DNA of 64,000 nt, taken from assembly GCF_024700885.2 (NCBI RefSeq), contig NZ_CP117016.1; one strand, given 5' to 3'. The notes beneath the pieces were generated by a model that was not told the DNA's origin, made no database searches, and was given only the letters and a program-made list of their open reading frames with translations. Below, one piece after another: positions 13,943 to 48,235 of this stretch. This DNA is from Escherichia coli (lineage in GTDB: Bacteria; Pseudomonadota; Gammaproteobacteria; Enterobacterales; Enterobacteriaceae). The first letter of the stretch is position 1. Each line of letters starts with the position of its first letter. Position numbers and translations under genes: made by a program.

Positions 13943-14416
13943 ATGAAAAAAATACTTGAAGCAATACTGGCGATTAATCTCGCCGTACTTTCCTGTATTG
14001 TGTTTATAAACATTATTTTAAGATATGGTTTTCAGACAAGCATTTTATCTGTAGATGAATTGTCACGTTATTTATTTGTCTGGTTAACATTTATTGGCGC
14101 GATTGTGGCTTTTATGGATAACGCCCACGTTCAGGTCACCTTTCTGGTGGAGAAACTCTCCCCCGCATGGCAGCGACGAGTCGCTCTGGTTACCCATTCC
14201 TTAATCTTATTTATTTGTGGCGCACTGGCCTGGGGCGCAACGCTAAAAACAATTCAGGACTGGAGCGATTATTCACCGATCCTCGGTTTGCCCATCGGCC
14301 TGATGTATGCCGCTTGTCTGCCCACCAGCCTCGTTATCGCATTCTTTGAACTGCGTCATTTATATCAACTCATCACGCGTAGCAATTCTCTAACGTCGCC
14401 ACCGCAAGGAGCTTAA
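13943..14416 (+). CDS. yiaM: TRAP transporter small permease
   Basis: 157-aa hydrophobic protein immediately before the large permease. Confidence 0.88.
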
Positions 14417-14418
14417 TC

Positions 14419-15696
14419 ATGGCTGTGCTGATTTTTCTGGGCTGTCTGTTGGGTGGTATTGCTATCGGTTTGCCTATTGCCTGGGCACTTTTGTTGTGCG
14501 GGGCGGCGTTAATGTTCTGGCTGGATATGTTTGATGTCCAGATCATGGCACAAACGCTGGTGAACGGAGCCGACAGTTTCTCCCTGCTGGCGATACCGTT
14601 CTTTGTGCTGGCGGGTGAAATTATGAATGCGGGCGGCTTGTCGAAACGCATTGTTGACCTGCCGATGAAACTGGTGGGGCATAAACCTGGCGGGCTGGGC
14701 TACGTCGGCGTGCTGGCGGCTATGATTATGGCAAGCCTTTCCGGTTCTGCCGTTGCAGATACCGCCGCCGTCGCCGCGTTACTGGTGCCGATGATGCGCA
14801 GCGCTAACTACCCGGTCAACCGTGCTGCGGGGCTGATTGCCTCTGGCGGGATTATCGCGCCAATTATTCCTCCTTCCATTCCGTTTATTATCTTCGGCGT
14901 TTCCAGCGGATTATCCATCAGTAAGCTGTTTATGGCGGGCATTGCCCCTGGCATGATGATGGGTGCAACGCTGATGCTTACCTGGTGGTGGCAGGCCAGT
15001 CGCCTTAATTTACCCCGCCAGCAAAAAGCAACGATGCAGGAAATCTGGCACTCTTTTGTCTCCGGTATCTGGGCGCTGTTTCTTCCAGTCATCATTATTG
15101 GCGGGTTTCGCTCCGGTCTGTTTACCCCTACCGAAGCCGGGGCCGTTGCTGCTTTCTATGCGCTGTTTGTCGCCACAGTTATTTACCGTGAAATGACCTT
15201 CGCCACACTTTGGCATGTGCTCATTGGCGCAGCGAAAACGACCTCAGTGGTGATGTTTCTGGTGGCCTCGGCACAAGTTTCCGCCTGGCTGATCACCATT
15301 GCTGAACTGCCGATGATGGTTTCTGATTTACTGCAACCGCTGGTCGATTCACCGCGTCTGCTGTTTATCGTCATTATGGTGGCTATCCTGATTGTCGGCA
15401 TGGTCATGGATTTAACGCCGACGGTATTAATTCTTACCCCGGTATTAATGCCTTTAGTTAAAGAGGCAGGAATCGATCCGATTTATTTCGGTGTCATGTT
15501 TATCATTAACTGCTCAATCGGCTTAATTACACCGCCTATCGGTAATGTGCTTAACGTTATTTCAGGGGTGGCAAAACTCAAATTCGATGATGCAGTCAGA
15601 GGCGTTTTCCCTTACGTCCTGGTTTTATATTCATTATTAGTCGTATTTGTTTTTATTCCCGATCTCATCATCCTCCCTTTGAAATGGATTAATTAA
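14419..15696 (+). CDS. yiaN: TRAP transporter large permease
   Basis: 425-aa polytopic membrane protein (DctM-like). Confidence 0.9.
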   Translation: MAVLIFLGCLLGGIAIGLPIAWALLLCGAALMFWLDMFDVQIMAQTLVNGADSFSLLAIPFFVLAGEIMNAGGLSKRIVDLPMKLVGHKPGGLGYVGVLAAMIMASLSGSAVADTAAVAALLVPMMRSANYPVNRAAGLIASGGIIAPIIPPSIPFIIFGVSSGLSISKLFMAGIAPGMMMGATLMLTWWWQASRLNLPRQQKATMQEIWHSFVSGIWALFLPVIIIGGFRSGLFTPTEAGAVAAFYALFVATVIYREMTFATLWHVLIGAAKTTSVVMFLVASAQVSAWLITIAELPMMVSDLLQPLVDSPRLLFIVIMVAILIVGMVMDLTPTVLILTPVLMPLVKEAGIDPIYFGVMFIINCSIGLITPPIGNVLNVISGVAKLKFDDAVRGVFPYVLVLYSLLVVFVFIPDLIILPLKWIN

Positions 15697-15708
15697 AAGG
15701 AAAATATT

Positions 15709-16695
15709 ATGAAATTACGCTCTGTAACCTACGCATTATTCATTGCTGGCCTGGCTGCATTTAGTACATCTTCAATGGCGGCGCAGTCTTTACGTTTCGG
15801 TTATGAAACCTCACAAACCGACTCGCAACATATTGCGGCGAAAAAATTCAATGATTTATTGCAGGAGAGAACCAAAGGCGAGCTGAAATTAAAACTGTTC
15901 CCGGACAGCACTCTCGGTAACGCGCAGGCGATGATCAGCGGCGTACGTGGCGGCACCATCGATATGGAAATGTCCGGCTCGAATAACTTTGCCGGGTTAT
16001 CACCAGTGATGAACTTGCTTGATGTCCCTTTCCTGTTCCGCGATACCGCTCACGCGCATAAAACGCTCGACGGCAAAGTCGGTGATGATTTGAAAGCCTC
16101 ACTTGAAGGTAAAGGACTGAAAGTACTTGCCTACTGGGAAAACGGCTGGCGCGATGTCACCAACTCCCGCGCACCAGTTAAAACCCCCGCAGACCTGAAA
16201 GGGTTGAAAATCCGCACCAACAATAGCCCGATGAATATCGCCGCATTCAAAGTCTTTGGCGCTAACCCGATCCCGATGCCGTTTGCCGAAGTCTATACCG
16301 GGCTGGAAACGCGCACTATCGACGCTCAGGAACACCCGATCAACGTCGTCTGGTCAGCAAAATTTTTCGAAGTACAGAAGTACCTTTCTCTGACGCACCA
16401 CGCCTATTCGCCACTTCTGGTGGTGATCAACAAAGCGAAGTTTGACGGCTTAACCCCGGAGTTCCAGCAGGCGCTGATCTCATCTGCGCAGGAAGCGGGT
16501 AACTACCAGCGCAAACTGGTTGCCGAAGATCAGCAAAAAATCATCGACGGCATGAAAGAAGCGGGCGTGGAAGTCATCACCGATCTCGACCGCAAAGCCT
16601 TTAGCGACGCACTGGGGAATCAGGTTCGCGACATGTTTGTTAAAGATGTGCCGCAGGGAGCTGATCTGCTGAAAGCCGTGGATGAGGTGCAATAA
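15709..16695 (+). CDS. yiaO: TRAP transporter periplasmic solute-binding protein
   Basis: 328 aa with signal peptide; DctP-like. Confidence 0.9.
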   Translation: MKLRSVTYALFIAGLAAFSTSSMAAQSLRFGYETSQTDSQHIAAKKFNDLLQERTKGELKLKLFPDSTLGNAQAMISGVRGGTIDMEMSGSNNFAGLSPVMNLLDVPFLFRDTAHAHKTLDGKVGDDLKASLEGKGLKVLAYWENGWRDVTNSRAPVKTPADLKGLKIRTNNSPMNIAAFKVFGANPIPMPFAEVYTGLETRTIDAQEHPINVVWSAKFFEVQKYLSLTHHAYSPLLVVINKAKFDGLTPEFQQALISSAQEAGNYQRKLVAEDQQKIIDGMKEAGVEVITDLDRKAFSDALGNQVRDMFVKDVPQGADLLKAVDEVQ

Positions 16696-16698
16696 ACC

Positions 16699-18195
16699 AT
16701 GACGCAATACTGGCTGGGGTTAGATTGTGGCGGTAGCTGGCTGAAAGCCGGGCTGTATGACCGCGAAGGCCGGGAGGCAGGCGTGCAACGCCTGCCGCTG
16801 TGCACATTAAGCCCGCAGCCAGGCTGGGCAGAGCGCGATATGGCAGAACTGTGGCAATGCTGCATGGCTGTCATTCGCGCCCTGCTTACCCATTCCGGCG
16901 TTAGCGGGGAACAAATTGTCGGTATCGGCATCTCCGCACAGGGAAAGGGCTTGTTTTTGCTGGATAAAAACGACAAGCCGCTCGGTAACGCCATTTTGTC
17001 CTCGGATCGCCGGGCGATGGAAATCGTTCATCGCTGGCAGGAAGATGGCATCCCGGAAAAACTCTACCCGCTGACCCGACAAACCTTGTGGACCGGGCAT
17101 CCGGTGTCGCTGTTACGCTGGCTGAAAGAGCACGAACCGGAACGCTACGCGCAAATTGGCTGCGTGATGATGACGCACGACTACCTGCGCTGGTGTTTAA
17201 CCGGCGTCAAAGGTTGCGAAGAGAGCAATATTTCTGAGTCCAATCTCTACAACATGAGTCTTGGGGAATATGACCCGTGCCTCACCGACTGGCTTGGGAT
17301 CGCTGAAATCAACCACGCCCTGCCGCCTGTTGTCGGATCTGCCGAAATCTGCGGGGAGATCACCGCTCAGACAGCCGCACTGACCGGTCTGAAAGCGGGT
17401 ACGCCCGTTGTCGGCGGCCTGTTTGATGTGGTTTCCACCGCACTCTGTGCCGGGATCGAAGACGAATTTACCCTTAATGCGGTGATGGGCACCTGGGCGG
17501 TGACCAGCGGAATAACCCGTGGTTTACGTGACGGTGAAGCGCATCCGTATGTCTATGGTCGCTACGTTAACGATGGTCAATTTATCGTTCACGAAGCCAG
17601 CCCCACCTCTTCCGGCAACCTCGAATGGTTTACCGCACAGTGGGGAGAAATCTCGTTTGATGAGATTAACCAGGCCGTTGCCAGCTTGCCAAAGGCCGGG
17701 GGCGATCTCTTTTTCCTGCCGTTCCTGTACGGCAGCAACGCCGGACTCGAGATGACCAGCGGTTTCTACGGGATGCAGGCCATTCACACCCGCGCACACC
17801 TGTTGCAGGCCATTTATGAAGGGGTGGTATTCAGCCATATGACCCATCTCAACCGGATGCGCGAACGTTTTACTGATGTGCACACCCTGCGCGTCACTGG
17901 CGGCCCGGCGCATTCCGATGTCTGGATGCAAATGCTGGCGGACGTCAGCGGGCTGCGTATCGAACTGCCGCAGGTGGAAGAAACCGGCTGTTTTGGCGCG
18001 GCGCTTGCCGCCCGCGTCGGCACCGGGGTTTATCGCGATTTCAGCGAAGCCCAACGTGATTTACAGCACCCAGTACGCACCCTGCTGCCGGATATGACCG
18101 CACATCAGCTTTACCAACAAAAATACCAACGCTATCAGCATCTCATTGCCGCACTTCAGGGCTTTCACGCCCGCATCAAGGAGCACACATTATGA
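16699..18195 (+). CDS. lyxK: L-xylulose/3-keto-L-gulonate kinase
   Basis: 498 aa; FGGY sugar kinase; operon position. Confidence 0.9.
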   Translation: MTQYWLGLDCGGSWLKAGLYDREGREAGVQRLPLCTLSPQPGWAERDMAELWQCCMAVIRALLTHSGVSGEQIVGIGISAQGKGLFLLDKNDKPLGNAILSSDRRAMEIVHRWQEDGIPEKLYPLTRQTLWTGHPVSLLRWLKEHEPERYAQIGCVMMTHDYLRWCLTGVKGCEESNISESNLYNMSLGEYDPCLTDWLGIAEINHALPPVVGSAEICGEITAQTAALTGLKAGTPVVGGLFDVVSTALCAGIEDEFTLNAVMGTWAVTSGITRGLRDGEAHPYVYGRYVNDGQFIVHEASPTSSGNLEWFTAQWGEISFDEINQAVASLPKAGGDLFFLPFLYGSNAGLEMTSGFYGMQAIHTRAHLLQAIYEGVVFSHMTHLNRMRERFTDVHTLRVTGGPAHSDVWMQMLADVSGLRIELPQVEETGCFGAALAARVGTGVYRDFSEAQRDLQHPVRTLLPDMTAHQLYQQKYQRYQHLIAALQGFHARIKEHTL

Positions 18196-18854
18196 GCCGA
18201 CCACTTCTGCAACTGGCCCTCGACCACTCATCACTTGAAGCCGCGCAGCGCGACGTGATGCTGTTAAAAGACAGCGTCGATATCGTCGAAGCGGGCACTA
18301 TTCTCTGTTTAAACGAAGGGCTTGGCGCGGTGAAAGCCTTGCGCGAACAGTGCCCGGATAAAATCATCGTTGCCGACTGGAAGGTCGCCGACGCGGGTGA
18401 AACGCTCGTGCAACAGGCATTTGGCGCAGGCGCTAACTGGATGACCATCATCTGCGCCGCGCCGCTCGCGACGGTGGAAAAAGGCCACGCCATGGCGCAA
18501 CGCTGCGGTGGTGAAATTCAGATAGAACTGTTCGGCAACTGGACGCTGGACGACGCCCGCGACTGGCATCGTATTGGCGTGCGGCAGGCCATTTATCATC
18601 GCGGTCGTGACGCGCAAGCCAGCGGGCAACAGTGGTGCGAAGCCGATCTGGCACGTATGAAGGCGCTTTCCGATATCGGCCTTGAGCTTTCCATTACCGG
18701 CGGGATTACCCCTGCTGACCTGCCGCTGTTTAAAGATATCCGCGTGAAAGCGTTTATTGCCGGGCGGGCGCTGGCAGGCGCAGCAAATCCGGCGCAGGTG
18801 GCTGGCGATTTCCATGCGCAAATCGACGCTATCTGGGGAGGCGCGCGTGCGTAA
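18192..18854 (+). CDS. sgbH: 3-keto-L-gulonate-6-phosphate decarboxylase
   Basis: 220 aa; overlaps the lyxK stop. Confidence 0.9.
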
Positions 18855-19707
18855 TCATCCGTTAGGTATTTATGAAAAAGCGCTGGCGAAAGATCTCTCC
18901 TGGCCTGAGCGGCTGGTGCTGGCGAAAAGCTGCGGTTTTGATTTTGTCGAAATGTCGGTGGATGAAACCGACGAACGTTTGTCACGCCTTGACTGGAACG
19001 CCGCACAACGTGCTTCACTGGTCACTGCGATGATCGAAACGGGTGTTGCCATTCCGTCAATGTGCCTGTCCGCACATCGTCGCTTTCCCTTTGGCAGCCG
19101 GGACGAGGCGGTGCGCGAACGGGCGCGGAAAATCATGAGTAAAGCGATTCGCCTGGCGCGCGATCTCGGCATTCGCACCATTCAACTGGCGGGTTATGAC
19201 GTCTATTACGAAGACCACGACGAAGGCACCCGGCAACGTTTTGCTGAAGGGCTGGCGTGGGCGGTCGAACAGGCGGCGGCATCACAAGTAATGCTGGCGG
19301 TGGAGATTATGGATACCGCGTTTATGAACTCCATCAGCAAATGGAAAAAATGGGACGAGATGCTCGCCTCGCCGTGGTTCACCGTCTACCCGGACGTCGG
19401 CAACCTCAGCGCCTGGGGCAATGATGTTTCCGCCGAACTGAAACTGGGCATTGACCGTATTGCCGCAATCCACCTGAAAGACACCCGGCCAGTGACCGAG
19501 CAAAGCCCCGGACAGTTCCGTGATGTGCCGTTTGGCGAAGGCTGCGTCGATTTCGTTGGCATCTTCAAAACGCTGCATGAACTGAACTATCGCGGTTCTT
19601 TCCTGATTGAGATGTGGACCGAAAAAGCCAAAGAGCCGGTGCTGGAGATTATTCAGGCGCGGCGCTGGATTGAAGCGCGTATGCAGGAGGCTGGATTTAT
19701 ATGTTAG
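18847..19707 (+). CDS. sgbU: L-xylulose-5-phosphate 3-epimerase
   Basis: 286 aa from an in-frame GTG at 18847 ([15 protein letters not shown]…), 8 nt overlap with sgbH. Track start at 18757 rejected as an extension through sgbH. Confidence 0.85.
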
Positions 19708-20396
19708 AGCAACTGAAAGCCGACGTGCTGGCGGCAAATCTGGCACTTCCCGCTCACCATCTGGTGACGTTCACCTGGGGCAATGTCAGCGCGGTAGACG
19801 AAACGCGGCAATGGATGGTAATCAAACCTTCCGGCGTCGAGTACGACGTGATGACTGCCGACGATATGGTGGTGGTTGAGATAGCCAGCGGTAAGGGGGT
19901 GGAAGGCAGCAAAAAGCCCTCGTCCGACACGCCAACGCATCTGGCGCTCTACCGTCGCTATGCCGAAATCGGTGGCATTGTGCATACCCACTCGCGCCAC
20001 GCGACCATCTGGTCACAGGCCGGGCTGGATCTCCCCGCCTGGGGCACCACGCACGCCGATTACTTCTATGGAGCCATCCCCTGCACGCGCCTGATGACCG
20101 CAGAAGAGATCAACGGCGAGTATGAATACCAGACTGGCGAAGTGATCATTGAAACCCTCGAAGAACGCGGCAGGAGTCCAGCGCAAATCCCGGCGGTTCT
20201 GGTACATTCTCACGGCCCGTTCGCCTGGGGTAAAAACGCCGCCGATGCGGTGCATAATGCCGTAGTGCTGGAAGAGTGCGCCTATATGGGCCTGTTCTCG
20301 CGCCAGCTTGCGCCGCAACTCCCTGCGATGCAAAACGAACTGTTGGATAAGCACTACCTGCGTAAGCATGGGGCCAATGCCTATTACGGGCAGTAA
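19701..20396 (+). CDS. sgbE: L-ribulose-5-phosphate 4-epimerase
   Basis: 231 aa; class II aldolase/epimerase; overlaps the sgbU stop. Confidence 0.9.
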
Positions 20397-20427
20397 TCCC
20401 TCACGCCGGGGCTTCATTGCCCCGGCA

Positions 20428-21243
20428 CTACGAATTGATATGTTCCTTGCTGTAACGTCGCTTCCACGCAGCTGGCGTTAAACCGGTGTGTTTGCGAAAA
20501 ATCTGCCGGAAATAGCCAACGTCATTAAACCCACACAACGCCGCCACTTCCGTGAGCGATCGCGCTTCGCTAATTAACAGCTTTTCGGCTTCGCGCACTC
20601 GCTGGCGATGGATTGCTTCTGTTAACGTCAGATGAAACACCCGCCGATAGACGCGCCCAAGATAATCGGCATTGCAGTACAGCTCGCGGGCTAAAAGCGC
20701 CGTGGAAAGCGGGCGATGATATTGCGTGCGGATCAGTTTCTGCGCTTTCCAGGCAAGCGTGGTACCTGCGGCATCGGCCTGTTCATCAAGACGCGCGTCA
20801 CGGGTGAGTTGCTGCAAAATCAGCAGCACAATAAACTCCAGCGCCGGAGTGCGTTGATGCTTTTCCTGTTCGCTTAAGAACTGGCGAAACAGGGCCACCA
20901 GCGCCTGCGGATCGGCAACCTTCGTTTGTTGCGGCACGCTAAGATGAGTGAGCCAGCGCGGGTCGCTATCCGGCGCTTTAACCTCAAAATGCAGCCAGTA
21001 AAATTTGAGATCGGCGGGAAAATCCTCTACCCCAACATGCTGTCGGTTCGGCCAGAGTAATAAACTCTCTCCCGCATCGACCAGAAATATCCGCTCTTCT
21101 TCCTGAATCGTTAATCGACCTTTTTCGACAAAGATAATTTCCCATGACTCCAGCCGCCTTGCCGGATGCCTCCCTACGCCACGGGAAATAAATAATCCAC
21201 CATTTTGCACTTTAATCGGTAACGTCATGGATAATTCGAGCAT
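20428..21243 (-). CDS. AraC-family transcriptional regulator (accessory)
   Basis: 271 aa; C-terminal AraC HTH (…LTEVAALCGFNDVGYFRQIFRKHTGLTPAAWKRR); N-terminal cupin-like sugar-sensing half. True start may be Met 6. Confidence 0.8.
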   Translation of the reverse strand: MLELSMTLPIKVQNGGLFISRGVGRHPARRLESWEIIFVEKGRLTIQEEERIFLVDAGESLLLWPNRQHVGVEDFPADLKFYWLHFEVKAPDSDPRWLTHLSVPQQTKVADPQALVALFRQFLSEQEKHQRTPALEFIVLLILQQLTRDARLDEQADAAGTTLAWKAQKLIRTQYHRPLSTALLARELYCNADYLGRVYRRVFHLTLTEAIHRQRVREAEKLLISEARSLTEVAALCGFNDVGYFRQIFRKHTGLTPAAWKRRYSKEHINS

Positions 21244-21289
21244 TGATATGTAATTTCCCGCTTATTCATTAATGATTAAACACATTACC

Positions 21290-21308
21290 TTTTGATTATT
21301 AATCAAAA
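21290..21308. promoter_or_regulatory. Perfect 9-1-9 palindrome in the divergent AraC/transporter promoter region
   Basis: TTTTGATTA-T-TAATCAAAA read directly from the sequence; candidate operator. Confidence 0.3.
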
Positions 21309-21468
21309 ACATTAATTTCACCTGATCCATTTCACACTTTTAAATTCAGGTCGGAATCGTCACCTTTTTTTACTCTTTTCTCGCCTTGTTGATATTCCCG
21401 TTCACGGCAGAATTAATCATGTCATTGCAATAAAACTAAAAATTGCTCCCTATTCACGAGGAATATCT

Positions 21469-22869
21469 ATGACCTCTACACCGATTACTACCGCTGATAT
21501 CGCTAAAGGTAAAATTGACGATGCGTTATCTGTACGGGAAAAAATAGGCTACGGCCTGGGTGACGCAGGCGGCACCGTAATAACTTGCCTGATCATGAAC
21601 TTTCTCACCTTTTTCTACACCGACGTTTTTGGCTTAACTCCGGCGCTGGTCGGCACGCTGTTTATTGCACTGCGCGTGTTTGATGCCATCTCCGACCCGG
21701 TGATGGGCGTCATTGCCGACCGGACGCAAAGTCGCTGGGGGCGCTTTCGTCCGTGGCAGTTATGGATTGCCATTCCCATCGGCATTATCGGCATCCTGAC
21801 GTTCACCGTGCCAGATGCCAGCATGGGAGTAAAAATCGCCTGGGCGTTCGGCACTTACCTGCTCCTTTCAGTCGGTTATACCGCCATCAACGTGCCGTAC
21901 TGCGCGCTGATCAACACCATGACCACCCGCCACAATGAAGTGATCTCCTGCCAGTCCTGGCGATTCGTTCTCTGCGGCGTAGCGGGATTTCTGGTTTCGG
22001 TTGGCCTGCCGTGGATGGTGGATCTCTTCGGTCAGGGTAATGCCGCGCGCGGCTATCAACTGGGCGTCGGCGTATTGTGCGCCATCGCTGTGGTGATGTT
22101 CCTGTGCTGTTTCTTCTGGGTTCGTGAACGGGTACCACTCTCCACAATGGGGAAATTTACCCTGCGCGAACATCTTGCCGGGCTGCGAAACAACGACCAA
22201 CTGCTGCTGATGCTGGTCATGTCTTTCCTGCTGATTAACGTCTTTAACATTCGCGGCGGTGGGTATATGTACTTCATTACCTACGTCTTACAAGGCAGTA
22301 CGGGCTACACGTCGCTGTTCTTCACCATGGTCACCTTCGCCTCCATTATCGGCTCGGTGATTGTCAGCCCGTTAACGCGACGTTTCGATACCGTCAAAAT
22401 TTACTACTACACCAACCTGCTCCTCGCCGCGCTGGCGGTGTTGATGTGGTTCCTGCCTTCTGGCCCGGCTTATCAAACGCTGTGGCTGGCGGTGATCCTC
22501 GGTAATGGCGTGATTCTTGGCTTCACATTGCCATTGCACTTCTCATTGATGGCCTTTGCCGATGACTACGGCGAGTGGAAAACCCGCGTACGTTCTTCCG
22601 GCATGAACTTCGCCTTCAATCTGTTTTTCATCAAACTGGCCTGGGCCTCCAGCGCCGGGATCATCAGCCTGCTGTTTATTTTTGTCGCCTACCAGCCAGG
22701 CGTGGAAAACCAGACCACCAGTTCGCTTGGCGGGATCACGGCGATGGAAACATTACTGCCTGCGCTATTCCACCTGCTGCTGGCAGGGGCGATCCGCTTT
22801 TGCAAACTCAATAACCCTATGATGTCACGCATTGCTACCGACCTGCGTCAGCGTCATGTACAGCCTTAA
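21469..22869 (+). CDS. GPH-family (glycoside-pentoside-hexuronide) cation symporter
   Basis: 466-aa 12-TM-like protein with the GPH/MelB-like signature near the N-terminus (…GYGLGDAGG…[13 protein letters not shown]…). Confidence 0.8.
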
Positions 22870-22879
22870 GGAGCACAAG

Positions 22880-24844
22880 ATGAACATTTCGGAAGTCGAT
22901 CTGCATAAACTGACGGTCAGCGATCCGTTCCTCGGTCAGTACCAACAACTGGTCCGCGATGTGGTGATTCCTTATCAGTGGGACGCCTTGAACGATCGTA
23001 TCCCAGAAGCGGAACCCAGCCATGCGATTGAAAACTTTCGCATTGCCGCAGGACTGCAAGACGGTGAATTTTACGGGATGGTGTTTCAGGACAGCGACGT
23101 CGCCAAATGGCTGGAAGCGGTAGCCTGGTCGCTGTGCCAGAAGCCGGATGCCGAACTGGAAAAAACCGCTGACGAGGTAATCGAACTGGTCGCTTCCGCC
23201 CAGTGCGAAGATGGCTATCTCAATACTTACTTTACGGTAAAAGCGCCCGAAGAACGCTGGAGCAATCTGGCGGAGTGTCATGAACTTTACTGCGCCGGTC
23301 ATCTGATTGAAGCCGGAGTCGCCTTCTTCCAGGCCACGGGAAAACGGCGCTTGCTGGAAGTGGTTTGCCGTCTGGCCGATCATATCGACAGCGTATTTGG
23401 TCCAGGTGAAAGTAAGTTACACGGTTATCCTGGTCACCCGGAAATTGAACTGGCACTAATGCGCCTGTATGAAGTGACCGAAGAGCCGCGCTACCTGGCG
23501 CTGACAAACTATTTTGTCGAACAGCGTGGTGCGCAACCGCACTATTACGACCAGGAATATGAAAAGCGCGGGCAGACCTCGCACTGGCACACCTACGGCC
23601 CGGCGTGGATGGTGAAAGATAAAGCCTACAGCCAGGCGCATTTGCCCATCGCACAGCAACAAACCGCCATCGGACATGCAGTACGCTTTGTATATCTGAT
23701 GACTGGCGTCGCACATCTGGCGCGTTTAAGTCACGATGAAAGCAAGCGTCAGGACTGCCTGCGGCTGTGGAACAATATGGCCCAGCGTCAGTTATATATT
23801 ACCGGCGGCATTGGCTCACAAAGCAGCGGCGAAGCGTTCAGCAGCGATTACGATCTGCCGAATGACACGGTATACGCTGAAAGCTGCGCCTCCATCGGCC
23901 TGATGATGTTTGCCCGGCGAATGCTGGAAATGGAAGGCGACAGTCAATATGCCGATGTGATGGAGCGCGCGCTGTACAACACTGTGCTCGGCGGCATGGC
24001 ACTGGATGGCAAACATTTCTTCTATGTGAATCCGCTGGAAGTACATCCAAAATCGCTGAAATTCAACCATATCTACGATCACGTTAAGCCGATCCGCCAG
24101 CGTTGGTTTGGTTGCGCTTGTTGTCCGCCAAATATCGCCCGCGTGCTAACCTCGATTGGTCATTATCTCTACACGCCGCGTGAAGATGCGTTGTATATCA
24201 ACATCTACGCAGGAAACAGCATGGAAGTGCCGGTAGAAAATGGCACGCTGCGCCTGCGGGTTAGCGGAAACTATCCGTGGCAGGAGCAGGTGACGATTGC
24301 GGTTGAATCGCCCCAGCCGGTGCGTCATACGCTGGCTTTACGTCTGCCGGACTGGTGCACACAGCCGCAGATCATATTGAATGGGGAAGAGGTCGAGCAG
24401 GATATTCGTAAAGGGTATTTGCACATTACCCGCGAATGGCAGGAGGGCGATATGCTGAATCTGACTTTGCCGATGCCGGTACGCCGCGTTTACGGTAACC
24501 CGCTGGTGCGTCACGTCGCCGGAAAAGTGGCGATTCAGCGCGGCCCACTGGTGTATTGCCTGGAACACGCCGACAACGGCGAGTCACTGCATAACCTGTG
24601 GCTGCCCGCCGATGCGCCATTTACGACATTTGAAGGTAATGGATTGTTCCGCCATAAGATCTTAATCCAGGCTCCGGGTTACCGGTATGAACAGAGCAAT
24701 CCAGAGCAGCAACCGCTGTGGCATTACGACAGCGCGCCAGCCAAACGCCAGCCGCAAACCCTGACCTTTATCCCGTGGTTTAGCTGGGCCAACCGGGGTG
24801 AAGGCGAAATGCGGATCTGGGTGAATGAGGAAACCAGCGCATGA
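22880..24844 (+). CDS. Glycoside hydrolase family 127-like (DUF1680, beta-L-arabinofuranosidase-type)
   Basis: 654 aa from MNISEV with an aaggag RBS; Cys-rich motif FGCACCPPNIARV and the HELYCAGHLIE region are characteristic of GH127. Family assignment from memory. Confidence 0.75.
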   Translation: MNISEVDLHKLTVSDPFLGQYQQLVRDVVIPYQWDALNDRIPEAEPSHAIENFRIAAGLQDGEFYGMVFQDSDVAKWLEAVAWSLCQKPDAELEKTADEVIELVASAQCEDGYLNTYFTVKAPEERWSNLAECHELYCAGHLIEAGVAFFQATGKRRLLEVVCRLADHIDSVFGPGESKLHGYPGHPEIELALMRLYEVTEEPRYLALTNYFVEQRGAQPHYYDQEYEKRGQTSHWHTYGPAWMVKDKAYSQAHLPIAQQQTAIGHAVRFVYLMTGVAHLARLSHDESKRQDCLRLWNNMAQRQLYITGGIGSQSSGEAFSSDYDLPNDTVYAESCASIGLMMFARRMLEMEGDSQYADVMERALYNTVLGGMALDGKHFFYVNPLEVHPKSLKFNHIYDHVKPIRQRWFGCACCPPNIARVLTSIGHYLYTPREDALYINIYAGNSMEVPVENGTLRLRVSGNYPWQEQVTIAVESPQPVRHTLALRLPDWCTQPQIILNGEEVEQDIRKGYLHITREWQEGDMLNLTLPMPVRRVYGNPLVRHVAGKVAIQRGPLVYCLEHADNGESLHNLWLPADAPFTTFEGNGLFRHKILIQAPGYRYEQSNPEQQPLWHYDSAPAKRQPQTLTFIPWFSWANRGEGEMRIWVNEETSA

Positions 24845-24915
24845 TGCGACGCTTAACGCGTCTTATCAGTATCAACATATCGGTGCGGTTGCCCGCCAAC
24901 CATCGAAACGCGAGA

Positions 24916-25326
24916 TTAAACGCCCGGCAATACACGCCGGGCAGCTTCCGCCAGAAACGCACTTCTGTTGGCATAGTCTGGGTTATTGCGCACGTAGGTA
25001 TCAATCTTGTTCAGTAATCTTTTTGGCATCGTAATATTGATACGTTCAGCCCGACCTTCGAACTGATTCATATTGATATCCACCAGCAACCATTGCCCGC
25101 CAATAAAGTCCTGCGCACGCTGGACCAGATGTGTTTCCACAGAGCCTGGAAGCGGCAACTCTTCATTCATCTCGCATAAGGTTTCGAAGTGCGCGACCAG
25201 TGCACTTCGCGCATCCTGGAAAGCGTAGTCCAGCGTATCACCAGCAAAATAACAGCCTGGAACATCAGGGAAAAAACCGCTGGCGCTGCCGTCAGGATCA
25301 CTGTGGATATAGGCGGGATAAAACAT
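24916..25326 (-). CDS. hicB: HicB-family antitoxin
   Basis: 136 aa; HicB-like N-domain plus C-terminal ribbon-helix-helix-like segment (RINITMPKRLLNKID…RSAFLAEAARR); 16 bp after hicA. Confidence 0.7.
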   Translation of the reverse strand: MFYPAYIHSDPDGSASGFFPDVPGCYFAGDTLDYAFQDARSALVAHFETLCEMNEELPLPGSVETHLVQRAQDFIGGQWLLVDINMNQFEGRAERINITMPKRLLNKIDTYVRNNPDYANRSAFLAEAARRVLPGV

Positions 25327-25342
25327 ATTGCCTCCTGAAATT

Positions 25343-25528
25343 TTAAAATGTTAAACCAGCCTGACGCCCAATTTGCGCCAGCGTACCGGGCTTAATATCT
25401 TTTTTAGGGTGCGGAACCGTCACCAGACCCGGATGAACAGGGTGGCGGAACTGATGACGACTGCCACGGGTTCGAATATGTTCCCAGCCATGCTGCTTCA
25501 GGATGGCGATCACGTCTGCACTTTTCAC
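25343..25528 (-). CDS. hicA: HicA-family mRNA interferase toxin
   Basis: 61 aa; HicA/YcfA-like (…HGWEHIRTRGSRHQFRHPVHPGLVTVPHPKKDIKPGTLAQIGRQAGL). Confidence 0.7.
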   Translation of the reverse strand: MKSADVIAILKQHGWEHIRTRGSRHQFRHPVHPGLVTVPHPKKDIKPGTLAQIGRQAGLTF

Positions 25529-26000
25529 ATCCCTGCCCTTCCATGATTATACACACGATACACACACAATTAGCGATAACAATCACGATAGCGCGATTTA
25601 TATGGGCCGTCAGGGGGATAAAGTTGACTCAGGAATGCCGCTCGGAAGAAGAATAACGGTGTGCAGTAATTGGTAGAAAATATGCGAGGATGCTCGCAAT
25701 TTACATATAACTCATAGTATTAGGTGTTAAAAAATCTGTATTAGATTATCCATGCGATATCGAAGCTAGTCTTGCTATAGCTCCAACTCGTATTCATTGA
25801 ACGTTTAAAACAACCAATAAAAGACACTGTTTTATTTTCTTGATAAATATCAAGTTTGTTTCACCATTGTATTTACAATGTGCAAACATTATTTTTTGTG
25901 TGTTATACATTAACTATGACCAATGATAAAGCGTTAATATATAAATATTTTCTATATTTTTATCAAACGCATTTTTATTAAATATATATAAGGAGTTATA

Positions 26001-27080
26001 ATGTCTATGGAGTTTATAGATAAGCTGAATTCATTATCCGCAAAAATAAAACAACAAGCCGGAGTCATTGAAACGGAGGAAGCTACCAAAAATGCTTTCG
26101 TAATGCCGTTCATTAACAATGTGTTAGGTTATGATGTCTTTGATCCTACCGAAGTTATCCCAGAGTTTGTATGCGATATTGGAACGAAGAAAGGTGAAAG
26201 GATTGACTATGCAATCTTAAAAAATAGCGAGGTTCAGATTCTCATTGAATGCAAAAAAATTGGCGATCCTCTAAATATAAATCATGCTTCACAGCTTTTT
26301 CGATACTTTCATGTAACAAATGCAAGAATATCTATTCTAACCAATGGACAAGTTTATAAATTTTTTACTGATTTAGAAGCACCTAATAAAATGGATGAAA
26401 AACCATTTCTTGAGATAGATCTACTTGACTTAGACGAAACAGTTGTTCCCGAGATAAAGAAGCTTACTAAATCAGCATTTGATTTGGAATCAATAATTAA
26501 TGCTGCAGGTGAATTAAAATATGTTAGTTTAATTAAAAAAGTTCTCCATGCACAAATGAATAATCCTGAAGAGGATTTTGTAAAATTCTTTGCAGCAAGA
26601 ATTTATGAAGGTATGTTAACACAAAAGGTAAAAGATACGTTTGCAAAATTAACAAAGAAAGCTGCCAATCAATATATTAACTCTCAAATAAACGAAAGAT
26701 TGAAATCGGCAATAGGTGGTGGGTCATTATCTGTAATTGATTCGAATTCACACAATGAGGAAGTTGAATGTATTAATAAAGAAGAAACCGATATTGCCAC
26801 TACTATGGAGGAACTTGAAGGATTTCATATTGTTAAAGCTATAGTTCGCGTAGTGCTTGATGCACCACGAATAGTCCACAGAGATACAAAAAGCTATTTT
26901 GGTATACTTGTAGATGACAATAATCGAAAGCCACTCTGTAGATTACATTTCAATCGAAATCAAAAATATATTGGTTTATTTGACTTAGAGAAAAACGAAA
27001 CCCGCCATCCTATTGAATCTCTCGATGATATTTATTCTTTCAGCGATGAGTTGAAAGCGACTGCCGCTTTATACAACTAA
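26001..27080 (+). CDS. Orphan HsdR-N-like PD-(D/E)xK nuclease-domain protein (candidate defence gene)
   Basis: 359 aa; aaggag RBS 5 nt upstream; N-terminal region carries D69 (RIDYAIL) and E83-x-K85 (ILIECKK) in the arrangement of type I restriction enzyme R-subunit N-terminal domains. Strongly AT-rich gene and upstream region. C-terminal about 100 aa of unknown function. Confidence 0.7.
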   Translation: MSMEFIDKLNSLSAKIKQQAGVIETEEATKNAFVMPFINNVLGYDVFDPTEVIPEFVCDIGTKKGERIDYAILKNSEVQILIECKKIGDPLNINHASQLFRYFHVTNARISILTNGQVYKFFTDLEAPNKMDEKPFLEIDLLDLDETVVPEIKKLTKSAFDLESIINAAGELKYVSLIKKVLHAQMNNPEEDFVKFFAARIYEGMLTQKVKDTFAKLTKKAANQYINSQINERLKSAIGGGSLSVIDSNSHNEEVECINKEETDIATTMEELEGFHIVKAIVRVVLDAPRIVHRDTKSYFGILVDDNNRKPLCRLHFNRNQKYIGLFDLEKNETRHPIESLDDIYSFSDELKATAALYN

Positions 27081-27083
27081 AAC

Positions 27084-27116
27084 AAAGGCAGACAACTATT
27101 AACGTTGCCTGCCTTT
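27084..27116. terminator. Bidirectional hairpin terminator between the nuclease-like gene and aldB
   Basis: aaaggcagacaa…ttgcctgccttt inverted repeat in the 40-bp convergent spacer. Confidence 0.5.
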
Positions 27117-27120
27117 CACA

Positions 27121-28659
27121 TCAGAACAGCCCCAACGGTTTATCCGAGTAGCTCACCAGCAGGCACTTGGTTTGCTGGTAATGCTCAAGCATCATTTTGT
27201 GGGTTTCGCGGCCAATGCCTGATTGTTTGTAGCCACCAAACGCCGCATGTGCCGGGTAAGCGTGATAACAGTTGGTCCACACGCGCCCGGCCTGAATGCC
27301 GCGCCCCATCTTATAGGCCAGATTACCGTTGCGGCTCCAGACACCCGCGCCCAGGCCATATTTCGTGTCGTTCGCCAGCTCCAGCGCTTCTTCCATCGTT
27401 TTGAAGGTGGTCACCGCCAGCACCGGGCCAAAAATCTCCTCCTGGAACACGCGCATATTATTCTGACCAAACAGAATCGTCGGTTCGAGGTAGTAGCCGT
27501 CTTTCAGTTCGCCTTCCAGCAGCTTGCGCCGCCCGCCGGTGAGCACATCAGCGCCTTCTTTTTTACCGATATCAATGTAATTGAGGATGGTTTCCAGTTG
27601 CCCGTGCGAAACCTGCGCTCCCATTTGCGTCACGCTGTCGAGTGGGTTACCGCTACGAATGCTTTCGACACGGCGGATGGCGCGTTCCATAAAGCGTTCG
27701 TAGATAGACTCCTGTACTAAAGCACGGCTTGGACAGGTGCAAACTTCGCCCTGGTTAAAGGCAAACAGTGCAAAGCCTTCCAGCGCTTTATCGAAAAAGG
27801 CATCTTCTTCATCCATCACATCAGCAAAGAAGATATTTGGCGATTTGCCGCCCAGCTCCAGGGTTACCGGAATAATGTTTTGCGTAGCGTATTGCATAAT
27901 TTGTTGGCCCACTTCCGTTGAGCCGGTAAACGCCACTTTAGCGATGCGTTTCGAGGTCGCCAGATATTCGCCAATTTCCCCACCTGCACCGTTGACCACG
28001 TTCACCACGCCTGGCGGCAGTAAATCACCGACGATTTCCATTAGCAGCAGTACAGAAAGCGGGGTAAGACGTGCGGGTTTCAGCACCACACAGTTGCCCG
28101 CCGCCAGCGCGGGGGCCATTTTCCAGCTCGCCATCAGCAGCGGGAAGTTCCACGGAATAATCTGCCCCACCACGCCTAACGGTTCGTGGAAGTGATAAGC
28201 CACGGTTTCGCTATCCACTTCACTAATACCGCCTTCCTGCGCCCGAATACACGAGGCGAAATAGCGGAAATGGTCAATCGCCAGCGGCACATCGGCAGCA
28301 CTGGTTTCGCGAATGGGTTTGCCGTTATCCCAGGTTTCAGCGGTCGCTAACAGTTCGAGGTTCTGCTCCATCCGATCGGCGATCTTAAACAGAATCGCCG
28401 CGCGCTCCTGCACCGAAGTATGCGCCCATTTATCTTTCACTTTGTGCGCAGCATCCAGCGCCAGATCGATGTCTCGTTTGCCCGAAGACGCCACTTCGCA
28501 CAGCAGCTGCCCGGTCACCGGCGTCAGGTTCTGGTAATACTCGCCGTCGGCAGGGGCTACCCACTCGCCGCCGATAAAGTTGTCATAACGGGCTTTTAAC
28601 TTAAGAGGAAAACCATACTCGCCGGGCTTAATCTGTGCTGAAGGGGGATTATTGGTCAT
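27121..28659 (-). CDS. aldB: Aldehyde dehydrogenase B
   Basis: 512 aa from [17 protein letters not shown]…; ALDH catalytic motifs (…ELGGKSP…, …[12 protein letters not shown]…). Track ORF has a 30-codon upstream extension, rejected. Confidence 0.9.
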
Positions 28660-28784
28660 GATCGTCTCCTTGCGGTGTGAGGTATAACAAGGGTAGACGT
28701 GGCTGGCGAAATCTTCGCCAACTGGTGATAGCTTTACGACGGCTATCACGAATTTACGGGCAAGGATTACAGAGATAACTAAAA

Positions 28785-45785: not shown

Positions 45786-46321
45786 ATCTGCCTCGGATTC
45801 ACGTTTATCGGTGTTGTTTTTTGGCTGGCAGCCAGAAGGGAGTCAGGCTGATATTTTGACAATAATTCGGGTTCGCGATTCTCGCCATAACACCAAAGAA
45901 TAATTTTTAGAGGTGATGAGTTGCTTAGTTACATAACGATTTTATGACGAAGGCATAACATGCTGCAGATCACATCAGGTGAACGCCGTAAGAAAATATC
46001 TTGTGATTCAGATCACAAAGATTCAACAAACTAACAAAACAAAAATGTGACATTACTCACATTTAAATGCCATTTTTAGCGAAAATCGCCGCCTTGTTGC
46101 TTTTTTACACAGTCGTTTTGTGATGAGCATCACGTCAATTACCTCTCTACCCCCTATATTTATGTGACTGATATCACACAAAAGGCCGTCGACTGGACAG
46201 TTAACCGATTCAGTGCCAGATTTCGCAGTATCTACAAGGTCCGGCTACCTCTGCCGCCACATTAACAAAAAACCTCGGGCTTCCAGCCTGCGCGACAGCA
46301 AACATAAGAAGGGGTGTTTTT
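45786..46321. promoter_or_regulatory. mtlA upstream regulatory region
   Basis: 536-bp non-coding region before mtlA. The mtl operon promoter is known to be CRP- and MtlR-regulated; sites not mapped here. Confidence 0.45.
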
Positions 46322-48235
46322 ATGTCATCCGATATTAAGATCAAAGTGCAAAGCTTTGGTCGTTTCCTCAGCAACATGGTGATGCCAAATATCGGCGCGT
46401 TTATCGCGTGGGGTATCATCACCGCGTTATTTATTCCAACAGGGTGGTTACCGAACGAAACGCTGGCGAAGCTGGTCGGGCCAATGATCACTTATCTCCT
46501 GCCGCTGCTGATCGGTTATACCGGTGGTAAGCTGGTAGGCGGCGAACGTGGCGGTGTAGTCGGTGCCATCACCACCATGGGCGTTATCGTCGGCGCAGAT
46601 ATGCCAATGTTCCTTGGTTCTATGATTGCAGGTCCGCTGGGCGGCTGGTGCATTAAGCACTTCGACCGCTGGGTAGACGGTAAGATCAAATCCGGTTTTG
46701 AGATGCTGGTGAATAACTTCTCCGCAGGCATCATCGGGATGATCCTCGCTATTCTGGCATTCCTCGGCATTGGCCCGATTGTTGAAGCCCTGTCCAAAAT
46801 GCTGGCTGCGGGCGTTAACTTCATGGTTGTCCATGACATGCTGCCGCTGGCGTCTATCTTTGTTGAACCGGCGAAAATCCTGTTCCTCAACAACGCCATT
46901 AACCACGGTATCTTCTCGCCGCTGGGTATTCAGCAGTCCCATGAACTGGGTAAATCCATCTTCTTCCTGATTGAAGCTAACCCAGGTCCGGGTATGGGCG
47001 TGCTGCTGGCGTACATGTTCTTTGGTCGTGGTAGCGCTAAACAGTCTGCGGGCGGTGCGGCAATCATCCACTTCCTGGGCGGTATCCACGAAATCTACTT
47101 CCCGTATGTGCTGATGAATCCGCGTCTGATTCTGGCCGTTATCCTCGGTGGTATGACTGGCGTGTTCACGCTGACTATCCTGGGCGGTGGTCTGGTTTCT
47201 CCGGCATCTCCGGGTTCTATCCTTGCTGTACTGGCGATGACACCAAAAGGTGCTTATTTCGCTAACATCGCGGGTGTGTGTGCGGCGATGGCTGTCTCCT
47301 TCGTTGTCTCTGCTATTTTGCTGAAAACCAGCAAAGTGAAAGAAGAAGATGATATTGAAGCAGCAACTCGTCGTATGCAGGACATGAAAGCTGAGTCTAA
47401 AGGTGCGTCTCCGCTGTCTGCGGGCGATGTGACTAACGACCTGAGCCACGTACGTAAAATCATCGTTGCCTGTGATGCCGGTATGGGTTCCAGTGCAATG
47501 GGCGCAGGCGTGCTGCGTAAGAAAATTCAGGATGCAGGTCTGTCGCAGATTTCTGTTACTAACAGCGCGATCAACAACCTGCCGCCAGATGTGGACCTGG
47601 TCATCACTCACCGTGACCTGACCGAACGCGCTATGCGCCAGGTTCCGCAGGCACAGCATATTTCGCTGACCAACTTCCTCGACAGCGGCTTGTACACCAG
47701 CCTGACCGAACGTCTGGTTGCTGCCCAGCGCCATACTGAAAACGAAGTGAAAGTGAAAGACAGTCTGAAAGACAGCTTTGACGATTCCAATGCTAACCTG
47801 TTCAAGCTAGGCGCGGAGAACATCTTCCTCGGTCGCAAAGCGGCCACCAAAGAAGAAGCGATTCGTTTTGCTGGCGAGCAACTGGTGAAAGGCGGTTACG
47901 TTGAGCCGGAATACGTTCAGGCGATGCTGGATCGTGAAAAACTGACCCCGACTTATCTGGGTGAGTCTATCGCGGTGCCACACGGTACGGTTGAAGCGAA
48001 AGATCGCGTACTGAAAACGGGCGTGGTGTTCTGCCAGTACCCGGAAGGCGTGCGCTTCGGTGAAGAAGAAGATGACATTGCCCGTCTGGTGATTGGTATT
48101 GCTGCCCGTAACAACGAGCACATTCAGGTTATCACCAGCCTGACCAATGCACTGGATGATGAATCCGTCATCGAGCGTCTGGCACACACCACCAGCGTGG
48201 ATGAAGTGCTGGAACTGCTGGCAGGTCGTAAGTAA
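46322..48235 (+). CDS. mtlA: PTS mannitol-specific EIICBA component
   Basis: 637 aa; membrane EIIC domain plus EIIB (…[14 protein letters not shown]…) and EIIA (…[10 protein letters not shown]…) domains. Confidence 0.95.

Follow-up and report, generated by a model that had tools for sequence, protein, structure and literature searches.

The palindrome in the spacer between an AraC-family regulator gene and a divergent sugar operon in Escherichia coli raises the question of what selection has maintained at this spot, a symmetric operator or an element whose symmetry is incidental. We considered this question for a stretch of 64,000 nucleotides of an E. coli chromosome (here called the window), in which the regulator gene lies on the minus strand and the operon, made up of a symporter gene followed by a GH127 gene, lies on the plus strand (Table 1). 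The regulator has the N-terminal ligand-binding cupin and the C-terminal double helix-turn-helix of the AraC family, with Pfam matches to AraC_binding at residues 26-132 and to HTH_18 and HTH_AraC at residues 184-263, all above the gathering cutoffs. The divergent spacer (21244-21468) is 225 bp long and 68% A+T. Regulator, symporter and hydrolase form an accessory module that is uncharacterised in E. coli. It is carried by about 2320 of 5426 complete E. coli genomes (about 43%), O157:H7 and BL21(DE3) among them, and we found no literature specific to it.

In the window the module sits after yiaMNO-lyxK-sgbHUE, and its context depends on the strain. In the window (13943-28749) its neighbours are sgbE before it and, after it, hicBA, a restriction-endonuclease-like ORF and aldB. 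In E. coli O157:H7 EDL933 (NZ_CP008957.1 4575391-4580825, with the spacer at 4576349-4576573) the AraC gene directly adjoins a pseudogene that is a remnant of yiaJ, the yiaK-sgbE operon is missing, and yiaT-yiaU come after the module.

Table 1. Features of the module and of its divergent spacer, with positions in the window
Feature	Position	Strand	Remarks
AraC-family transcriptional regulator gene	20428-21243	-	271 aa; Pfam AraC_binding cupin and HTH_18
Conserved TTW (WAA on the minus strand)	21285-21287	-	No change at 21286; four neutral bases before the core
Perfect 19-bp palindrome, TTTTGATTA-T-TAATCAAAA	21290-21308		9-bp arms, 1-bp centre
Conserved asymmetric core, TTGATTATTAA	21292-21302		From alignment and parsimony
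Predicted -10 hexamer of the regulator gene, AATAAT	21295-21300	-	Best -10 candidate on the minus strand in the window
Remainder of the right arm	21303-21309		21303 and 21304 unconstrained, 21305-21309 restricted to A/T (3-9 changes); makes the dyad complete in E. coli
Block A, GATC-N4-TCACACTTTT	21323-21341		Near-invariant in 76/76 spacers; about -36 to -53 relative to the predicted start of the regulator
Blocks B1 (AGGTCGGAATCGTCACCTTTTTTT, 21348-71) and B2 (ACTCTTTTCTCGCCTTGTTGAT, 21372-93)	21348-21393	+	Strongly conserved; abut or overlap the symporter -35
Predicted symporter -35, TTGTTG	21386-91	+	0-1 changes, as for the symporter -10
Predicted symporter -10, CAGAAT (CA[G/A]AAT conserved)	21408-21413	+	16 bp from TTGTTG
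GPH-family (MFS_2) glycoside-pentoside-hexuronide:cation symporter gene	21469-22869	+	466 aa
GH127 (beta-L-arabinofuranosidase-like) glycoside hydrolase gene	22880-24844	+	

The palindrome reads TTTTGATTATTAATCAAAA in the window, and the preliminary description, which had reported a perfect 19-bp palindrome between the AraC-family and symporter genes, was exact in its sequence, coordinates, arms, centre and spacer length. It is the only perfect palindrome in the window with arms of at least 9 bp (gap 0 or 1). When the spacer alone was shuffled with dinucleotides preserved (20,000 shuffles), an arm of at least 9 bp appeared with P = 0.0048. Dinucleotide-preserving shuffles of the whole window contained a mean of 0.64 palindromes this long and at least one in 49% of cases, which indicates that the palindrome is notable by its location and not by its existence.

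To place the palindrome in a comparative setting, we scanned one genome per species with the regulator protein and obtained 79 loci from Enterobacteriaceae and Erwiniaceae, with 61-94% protein identity; in about 75 of the 79 the symporter and GH127 genes are divergently upstream, as in E. coli. The symporter and/or GH127 matches are truncated or fragmented at three loci (L067, L072 and L076), which suggests that the module is decaying in some species. We aligned 75 orthologous spacers with that of the window (76 sequences, MAFFT profile) and counted the changes in each column by Fitch parsimony on a regulator-gene tree of 60 species. Counts at single sites refer to the 63 unique spacers that carry the conserved box at the palindrome, anchored with at most one mismatch to TGATTATT, a choice that is slightly circular and with which the independent MAFFT profile agrees. 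Lineages were counted as clusters at 20% nucleotide divergence, of which 28 carry the box.

Conservation across the palindrome is asymmetric. The octamer TGATTATT (21293-21300) is invariant in 63 of 63 unique box-carrying spacers and has no change on the 60-species tree, on which the flanks of the core have 17-20 changes, the neutral rate. Further to the right, 21301 is A in 50 spacers and C in 12, 21302 is A in 59, 21303 is T in 32, C in 26 and A in 5, and 21304 is G in 26, A in 15, C in 15 and T in 7. The similar conservation of both half-sites that is expected of a dimer operator is absent, because the partners in the dyad are in opposite regimes: G21294 and C21304 have 0 and 20 changes, the latter position being fully neutral, and A21295 and T21303 have 0 and 13. 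The outer bases of the left arm, 21290 and 21291, are neutral (17 and 20 changes), and their partners in the right arm, 21308 and 21307, are restricted to A/T (4 and 5 changes). The complementarity of each arm pair agrees with the expectation from column frequencies at nine pairs (e.g. 0.24 vs 0.24 and 0.51 vs 0.51), with pair 8 alone slightly above it (0.57 vs 0.43), and no compensatory changes between the arms were seen across the orthologous spacers. The unit under selection would therefore be the left half and centre of the palindrome rather than the palindrome.

The distribution of the dyad among lineages is patchy. Among the 76 spacers the perfect 19-mer is present only in the window, in E. 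whittamii, in another Escherichia species and in Citrobacter amalonaticus, and arms of 7-10 bp are found in Yokenella and five species of Enterobacter. In most of the remaining species TTGATTATT(A/C)A is followed by a non-complementary right side (such as AATGAAT, AATAAAT, AACGATAAA or CACGATAAA), and 11 spacers of the Buttiauxella/Cedecea type are without the box and have AGTGTAGATAAA and 19 extra bases in its place, with blocks A and B kept. Ten sequences have arms of at least 7 bp, against 2.7 expected from a column shuffle, a control that ignores relatedness. Counted by lineage, such arms occur in 4 of the 28 box-carrying clusters (Escherichia, C. amalonaticus, one Enterobacter cluster and Yokenella), where the per-pair frequencies, multiplied together (0.043 per lineage), predict about 1.2; this is a mild excess, with a Poisson P of ~0.03, or 0.12 if Escherichia and C. 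amalonaticus represent one origin. The excess of long arms over the shuffles is thus due to three or four lineages. Within the Enterobacter cluster, whose members diverge by at most 20%, five species are palindromic and six are not, and they differ exactly at 21304. The asymmetric constraint, the complementarity at the expected level and the mixed Enterobacter alleles indicate that the dyad is not what selection maintains across the family. Judged from the alignment, its symmetry is most likely a lineage-specific accident: in Escherichia and C. amalonaticus the unconstrained 21303-21304 would happen to be TC, and the A/T-restricted flanks to be a T-run and an A-run, which together would yield a perfect dyad.

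Two other repeats in the spacer of the window were rejected as meaningful elements. An imperfect direct repeat of 23 nt (21265-21287 and 21292-21314, 78% identity, 27-bp period), which holds a second near-palindrome, TTATTCATTAATGATTAA, is specific to E. coli, and even E. whittamii does not share its first copy. The 8-mer ATTAATCA is found at 21298-305 and again at 21412-19 and was considered as a pair of looping sites; only GCA(G/A)AAT of the second copy is kept outside E. coli, to which the full copy is specific.

Read on the strand of the regulator gene, the core is TTAATAATCAA and would contain the -10 element of the AraC-family gene's own promoter (21300->21295). The hexamer differs from TATAAT at a single position (a 5/6 match) and retains A-11 and T-7; it has the top -10 score in the spacer of the window and lies on the strand of the regulator gene upstream of its start codon. 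Its sequence and position are conserved in the orthologous promoters, with all 63 unique spacers invariant, and it is the only -10-like hexamer on that strand whose position is constant across species; it is the top-scoring -10 in only 22 of the 76 spacers, which are A+T-rich. A simple consensus scan for promoters found none. In the clade that is without the box, the conserved motif that replaces it also has a -10-like hexamer (TACACT) on the same strand. There is no conserved -35 at 21318-21323 in the orthologous spacers, and block A starts exactly there. As the predicted promoter has no -35 and lies directly beside near-invariant block A (21323-41), it is probably activator-dependent, with a class II-like geometry, and the activator, acting from about -40, may be CRP or the regulator itself. 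Transcription of the regulator gene would start near 21286-21288, which makes the conserved TTW triplet a candidate start region of the regulator mRNA, and would leave a 5'UTR of about 45 nt.

The distances between these elements are nearly fixed. The core lies 49 bp from the ATG in 49 of 64 species and 48-50 bp from it in 63 of 64; it is 31 bp from GATC in 60 of 64, 39 bp from TCACA in 59 of 64 and 114 bp from the symporter -10 block in 59 of 64, and the distance from TCACA to the symporter -10 block is 75 bp in 74 of 76 spacers. The 5'UTR of the symporter varies in length, from 52 to 93 bp. In Buttiauxella izardii (L061) it has an insertion of ~140 bp with REP-like inverted GC-rich repeats, and the spacer is 383 bp long, against ~240 bp in relatives. 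Many species share a short palindrome, TTTGCAAA or ATTTGCAAAT, in the 5'UTR or start region predicted for the symporter (spacer ~182-190), and its E. coli counterpart is CATTGCAATA (window 21424-21433).

We regard as the best explanation, about evenly poised between being right and being wrong, that the conserved core is the -10 region of an activator-dependent promoter of the regulator gene and that the palindrome is incidental to it. The hexamer resembles the -10 elements of class II activator-dependent sigma-70 promoters in that it has A-11 and T-7, faces its gene from ~45-57 nt before the start codon and comes without a -35, and, as in class II promoters, a conserved block that looks like a protein site is centred ~40 bp upstream. 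Unlike in a plain -10, conservation here extends to C-6, A-5, T-14 and T-17. The preliminary description had taken the palindrome for a plausible operator. The spot does carry a functional cis-element, with an 8-11 bp core that is invariant across genera between saturated flanks; that the 19-bp dyad is the operator is unsupported, given the asymmetric constraint, the complementarity at expectation and the presence of the palindrome in 3-4 of 28 lineages, and the core fits a -10 better. Its accompanying caution, that palindromes of this type are not the usual sites of AraC-family proteins, was sound.

The sites of the regulator are more likely to be sought among the conserved blocks at 21323-21393 than at the palindrome, as far as the pattern of conservation can tell. 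Blocks B1 and B2 are most likely the binding region of the AraC-family activator, and block A may be either a regulator site or a CRP-like one. Of the 10 positions in the CRP consensus TGTGA-N6-TCACA, block A shares 8 in E. coli, where the CRP-like sequence is CCTGATCCATTTCACA, and about 7 in the family consensus. By itself this CRP-like match is no better than chance (31 hits in the window vs 26.5 expected). A GATC (Dam) sequence at 21324-21327 is invariant in 76 of 76 spacers with no change on the tree, which exceeds what a CRP half-site needs and is not the usual CRP pattern.

The main rival to the promoter reading is that the core is the site, ~20-25 bp long (TTW-N4-TTGATTATTMA-NN-AWWAA), of a protein that reads DNA asymmetrically, again with an incidental palindrome. 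As the whole explanation of the core, with either a monomer of the module's AraC-family regulator (autoregulation from an araO1-like site or from a distal looping half-site) or an IHF-type nucleoid or global protein as the candidate, we consider this possible and hold it tentatively; that such a site is superimposed on the -10 is likely. The invariance goes beyond the hexamer, to 21293-94, 21302, 21305 and 21286, and its 8-11 contiguous bases are more than a -10 normally needs, which makes a superimposed protein site probable or even the whole explanation. An asymmetric site may overlap the hexamer because conservation continues for a few bases past it and recurs at intervals of ~10 bp: the constrained segments are centred at ~21286, 21297 and 21307, that is, 10-11 bp apart and on one helix face, a spacing that is compatible with, though not specific to, an asymmetric AraC-type site of about 17-20 bp with contacts in two adjacent major grooves. 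The element has about the size of one AraC-family monomer site, and variants of its right half are kept within groups, such as TTGATTATTCACGATAAA across the Citrobacter freundii complex, Klebsiella and Raoultella. Against the regulator as the protein concerned, the box lacks the likeness to the regulator's other sites that is expected of an AraC/XylS site: the position weight matrices of blocks A, B1 and B2, which are regulator sites by inference, score -14 to -28 on the box, below the medians of shuffled spacers, and the box was rejected as a further copy of these blocks. The 11 Buttiauxella/Cedecea-type loci that keep blocks A and B without the box also argue that the regulator does not need it.

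The case for IHF is similarly divided. The core consensus of IHF sites is WATCAA-N4-TTR, and the minus strand of the box resembles it in having AATCAA, then four neutral bases and a conserved triplet, and in being flanked on its other side by a tract restricted to A/T. The triplet, however, is WAA and not TTR, with an invariant A where the second T is required, and the invariant 21298-21300 are unexplained by IHF; the box was rejected as an IHF site on account of the triplet.

A further reading is that the full dyad serves as a genuine operator of a dimeric regulator in a few lineages, namely Escherichia with C. amalonaticus and, independently of these, Yokenella and some Enterobacter. Such an operator would overlap the -10 of the regulator gene and repress it. 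We consider this unlikely, and it is about as doubtful that evolution in the Escherichia / C. amalonaticus lineage has turned the box into a true symmetric operator, to which a dimeric repressor encoded outside the module, or the AraC-family protein in an atypical inverted-repeat mode, would bind. If true, the symmetric operator would add a lineage-specific layer of control over the regulator gene. The main reason for keeping this reading is an island of 26 bp (21284-21309), including the whole palindrome, that is 100% identical between E. coli and C. amalonaticus in flanks that are 45-54% identical, which suggests extra constraint in this lineage. Such a perfect dyad is also improbable within the spacer (P ~0.005), and the number of lineages with arms of at least 7 bp tends in the same direction, as does the locus L017, in which 10-bp arms involve changes on both sides relative to E. 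coli. On the other hand, about half of random windows of 64 kb hold such a palindrome, conservation is not symmetric and there is no covariation across the family, and the very base on which the dyad depends varies among closely related species of Enterobacter.

Variation within E. coli is compatible with this reading without deciding it. The 45-mer 21277-21321 is identical in 2134 of 2320 genomes, and the island 21284-21309 is intact in 2203 and has one change in the other 117; of the flanking 30-mers, one is unchanged in 2223 genomes and the other in 1758. The commonest allele among the loci sampled (L085, L086, L087 and L083), found in two of three sampled genomes, is C21289T, which lengthens the arms to 10 bp and the palindrome to 21 bp. 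One isolate has T21300G, which alters an otherwise invariant base of the core, another has C21304A and an extra A, which break the right arm, and changes at 21310 and 21316 fall outside the palindrome. Diversity within E. coli is too low to show selection on the palindrome.

The perfect dyad of E. coli resembles the dyad operators of CRP/FNR, LacI/GalR, TetR and IclR proteins in its operator-like size and in its TTGAT...ATCAA half-sites, but it fits no known dimer consensus. Read as FNR-type half-sites it is TTGAT-N5-ATCAA, with N5 in place of the N4 of FNR-type operators and a symmetry that is neither conserved nor compensated, and the CRP-type reading is TTTGA-N7-TCAAA. Searches with up to one mismatch for FNR and up to two for CRP gave no hit at 21290-21308, and in both cases the spacing is wrong. 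We identified no cognate dimeric regulator for the dyad. The nearby region of the IclR-type YiaJ offers no counterpart either, since the TTGAAATT repeats of the yiaJ-yiaK spacer are unlike the palindrome. A comparison by eye, to be taken as a lead only, with the Fur box, the ArgR box and other consensus sequences gave no fit.

It is very improbable that the palindrome acts through nucleic-acid structure, as a DNA cruciform or a transcript hairpin: folding of the single strand yields an 8-bp stem (-4.6 kcal/mol, z = -3.7 vs shuffles), but this stem is weak, almost all A-T and closed by a 3-nt loop, is not conserved and has no compensatory changes, the region 21100-21600 has no match to Rfam families, and, if the promoters are as predicted, transcription of both genes would start downstream of the element.

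With the core read as part of the regulator's predicted promoter, the locus is an ordinary member of a well-known kind of regulatory region. In araC-araBAD, AraC binds O1, O2, I1 and I2 and a CRP site is shared between the two promoters, and melR-melAB and rhaSR-rhaBAD are similar. As in araC-araBAD, an AraC-family gene is divergent from an operon for sugar transport and catabolism that it presumably controls; the spacer is compact and free of indels, with conserved blocks that abut the -35 of the operon and a block with a TCACA half-site between the promoters (here predicted ones); and the predicted promoter of the regulator lacks a -35 and has a conserved site beside it. Unlike in araC-araBAD, blocks A, B1 and B2 do not form an evident set of 21-bp direct repeats and the sites are predicted from sequence, and the regulator is only a distant relative of AraC (61.5 bits vs a 208-bit cutoff).

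The importance of these results beyond the locus is small. The comparative map, with both predicted promoters, a rigid regulatory core of ~125 bp and blocks A, B1 and B2, could guide the study or engineering of the induction of the module. The locus also illustrates that a perfect palindrome in an A+T-rich spacer can arise as a by-product of an asymmetric conserved element.

Two further observations concern recognition sequences elsewhere in the window. A perfect FNR consensus, TTGATAAATATCAA, lies at 25840-25853, between the hicA toxin gene and an ORF annotated as a type I restriction endonuclease. At 46002-46178, four CRP sites of near-consensus sequence (TGTGATTCAGATCACA, TGTGACATTACTCACA, TGTGATGAGCATCACG and TGTGACTGATATCACA) form a cluster just upstream of an ORF of 637 aa (46322-48235) that has the size of MtlA, and this cluster is presumably the known multi-CRP promoter of mtlA.
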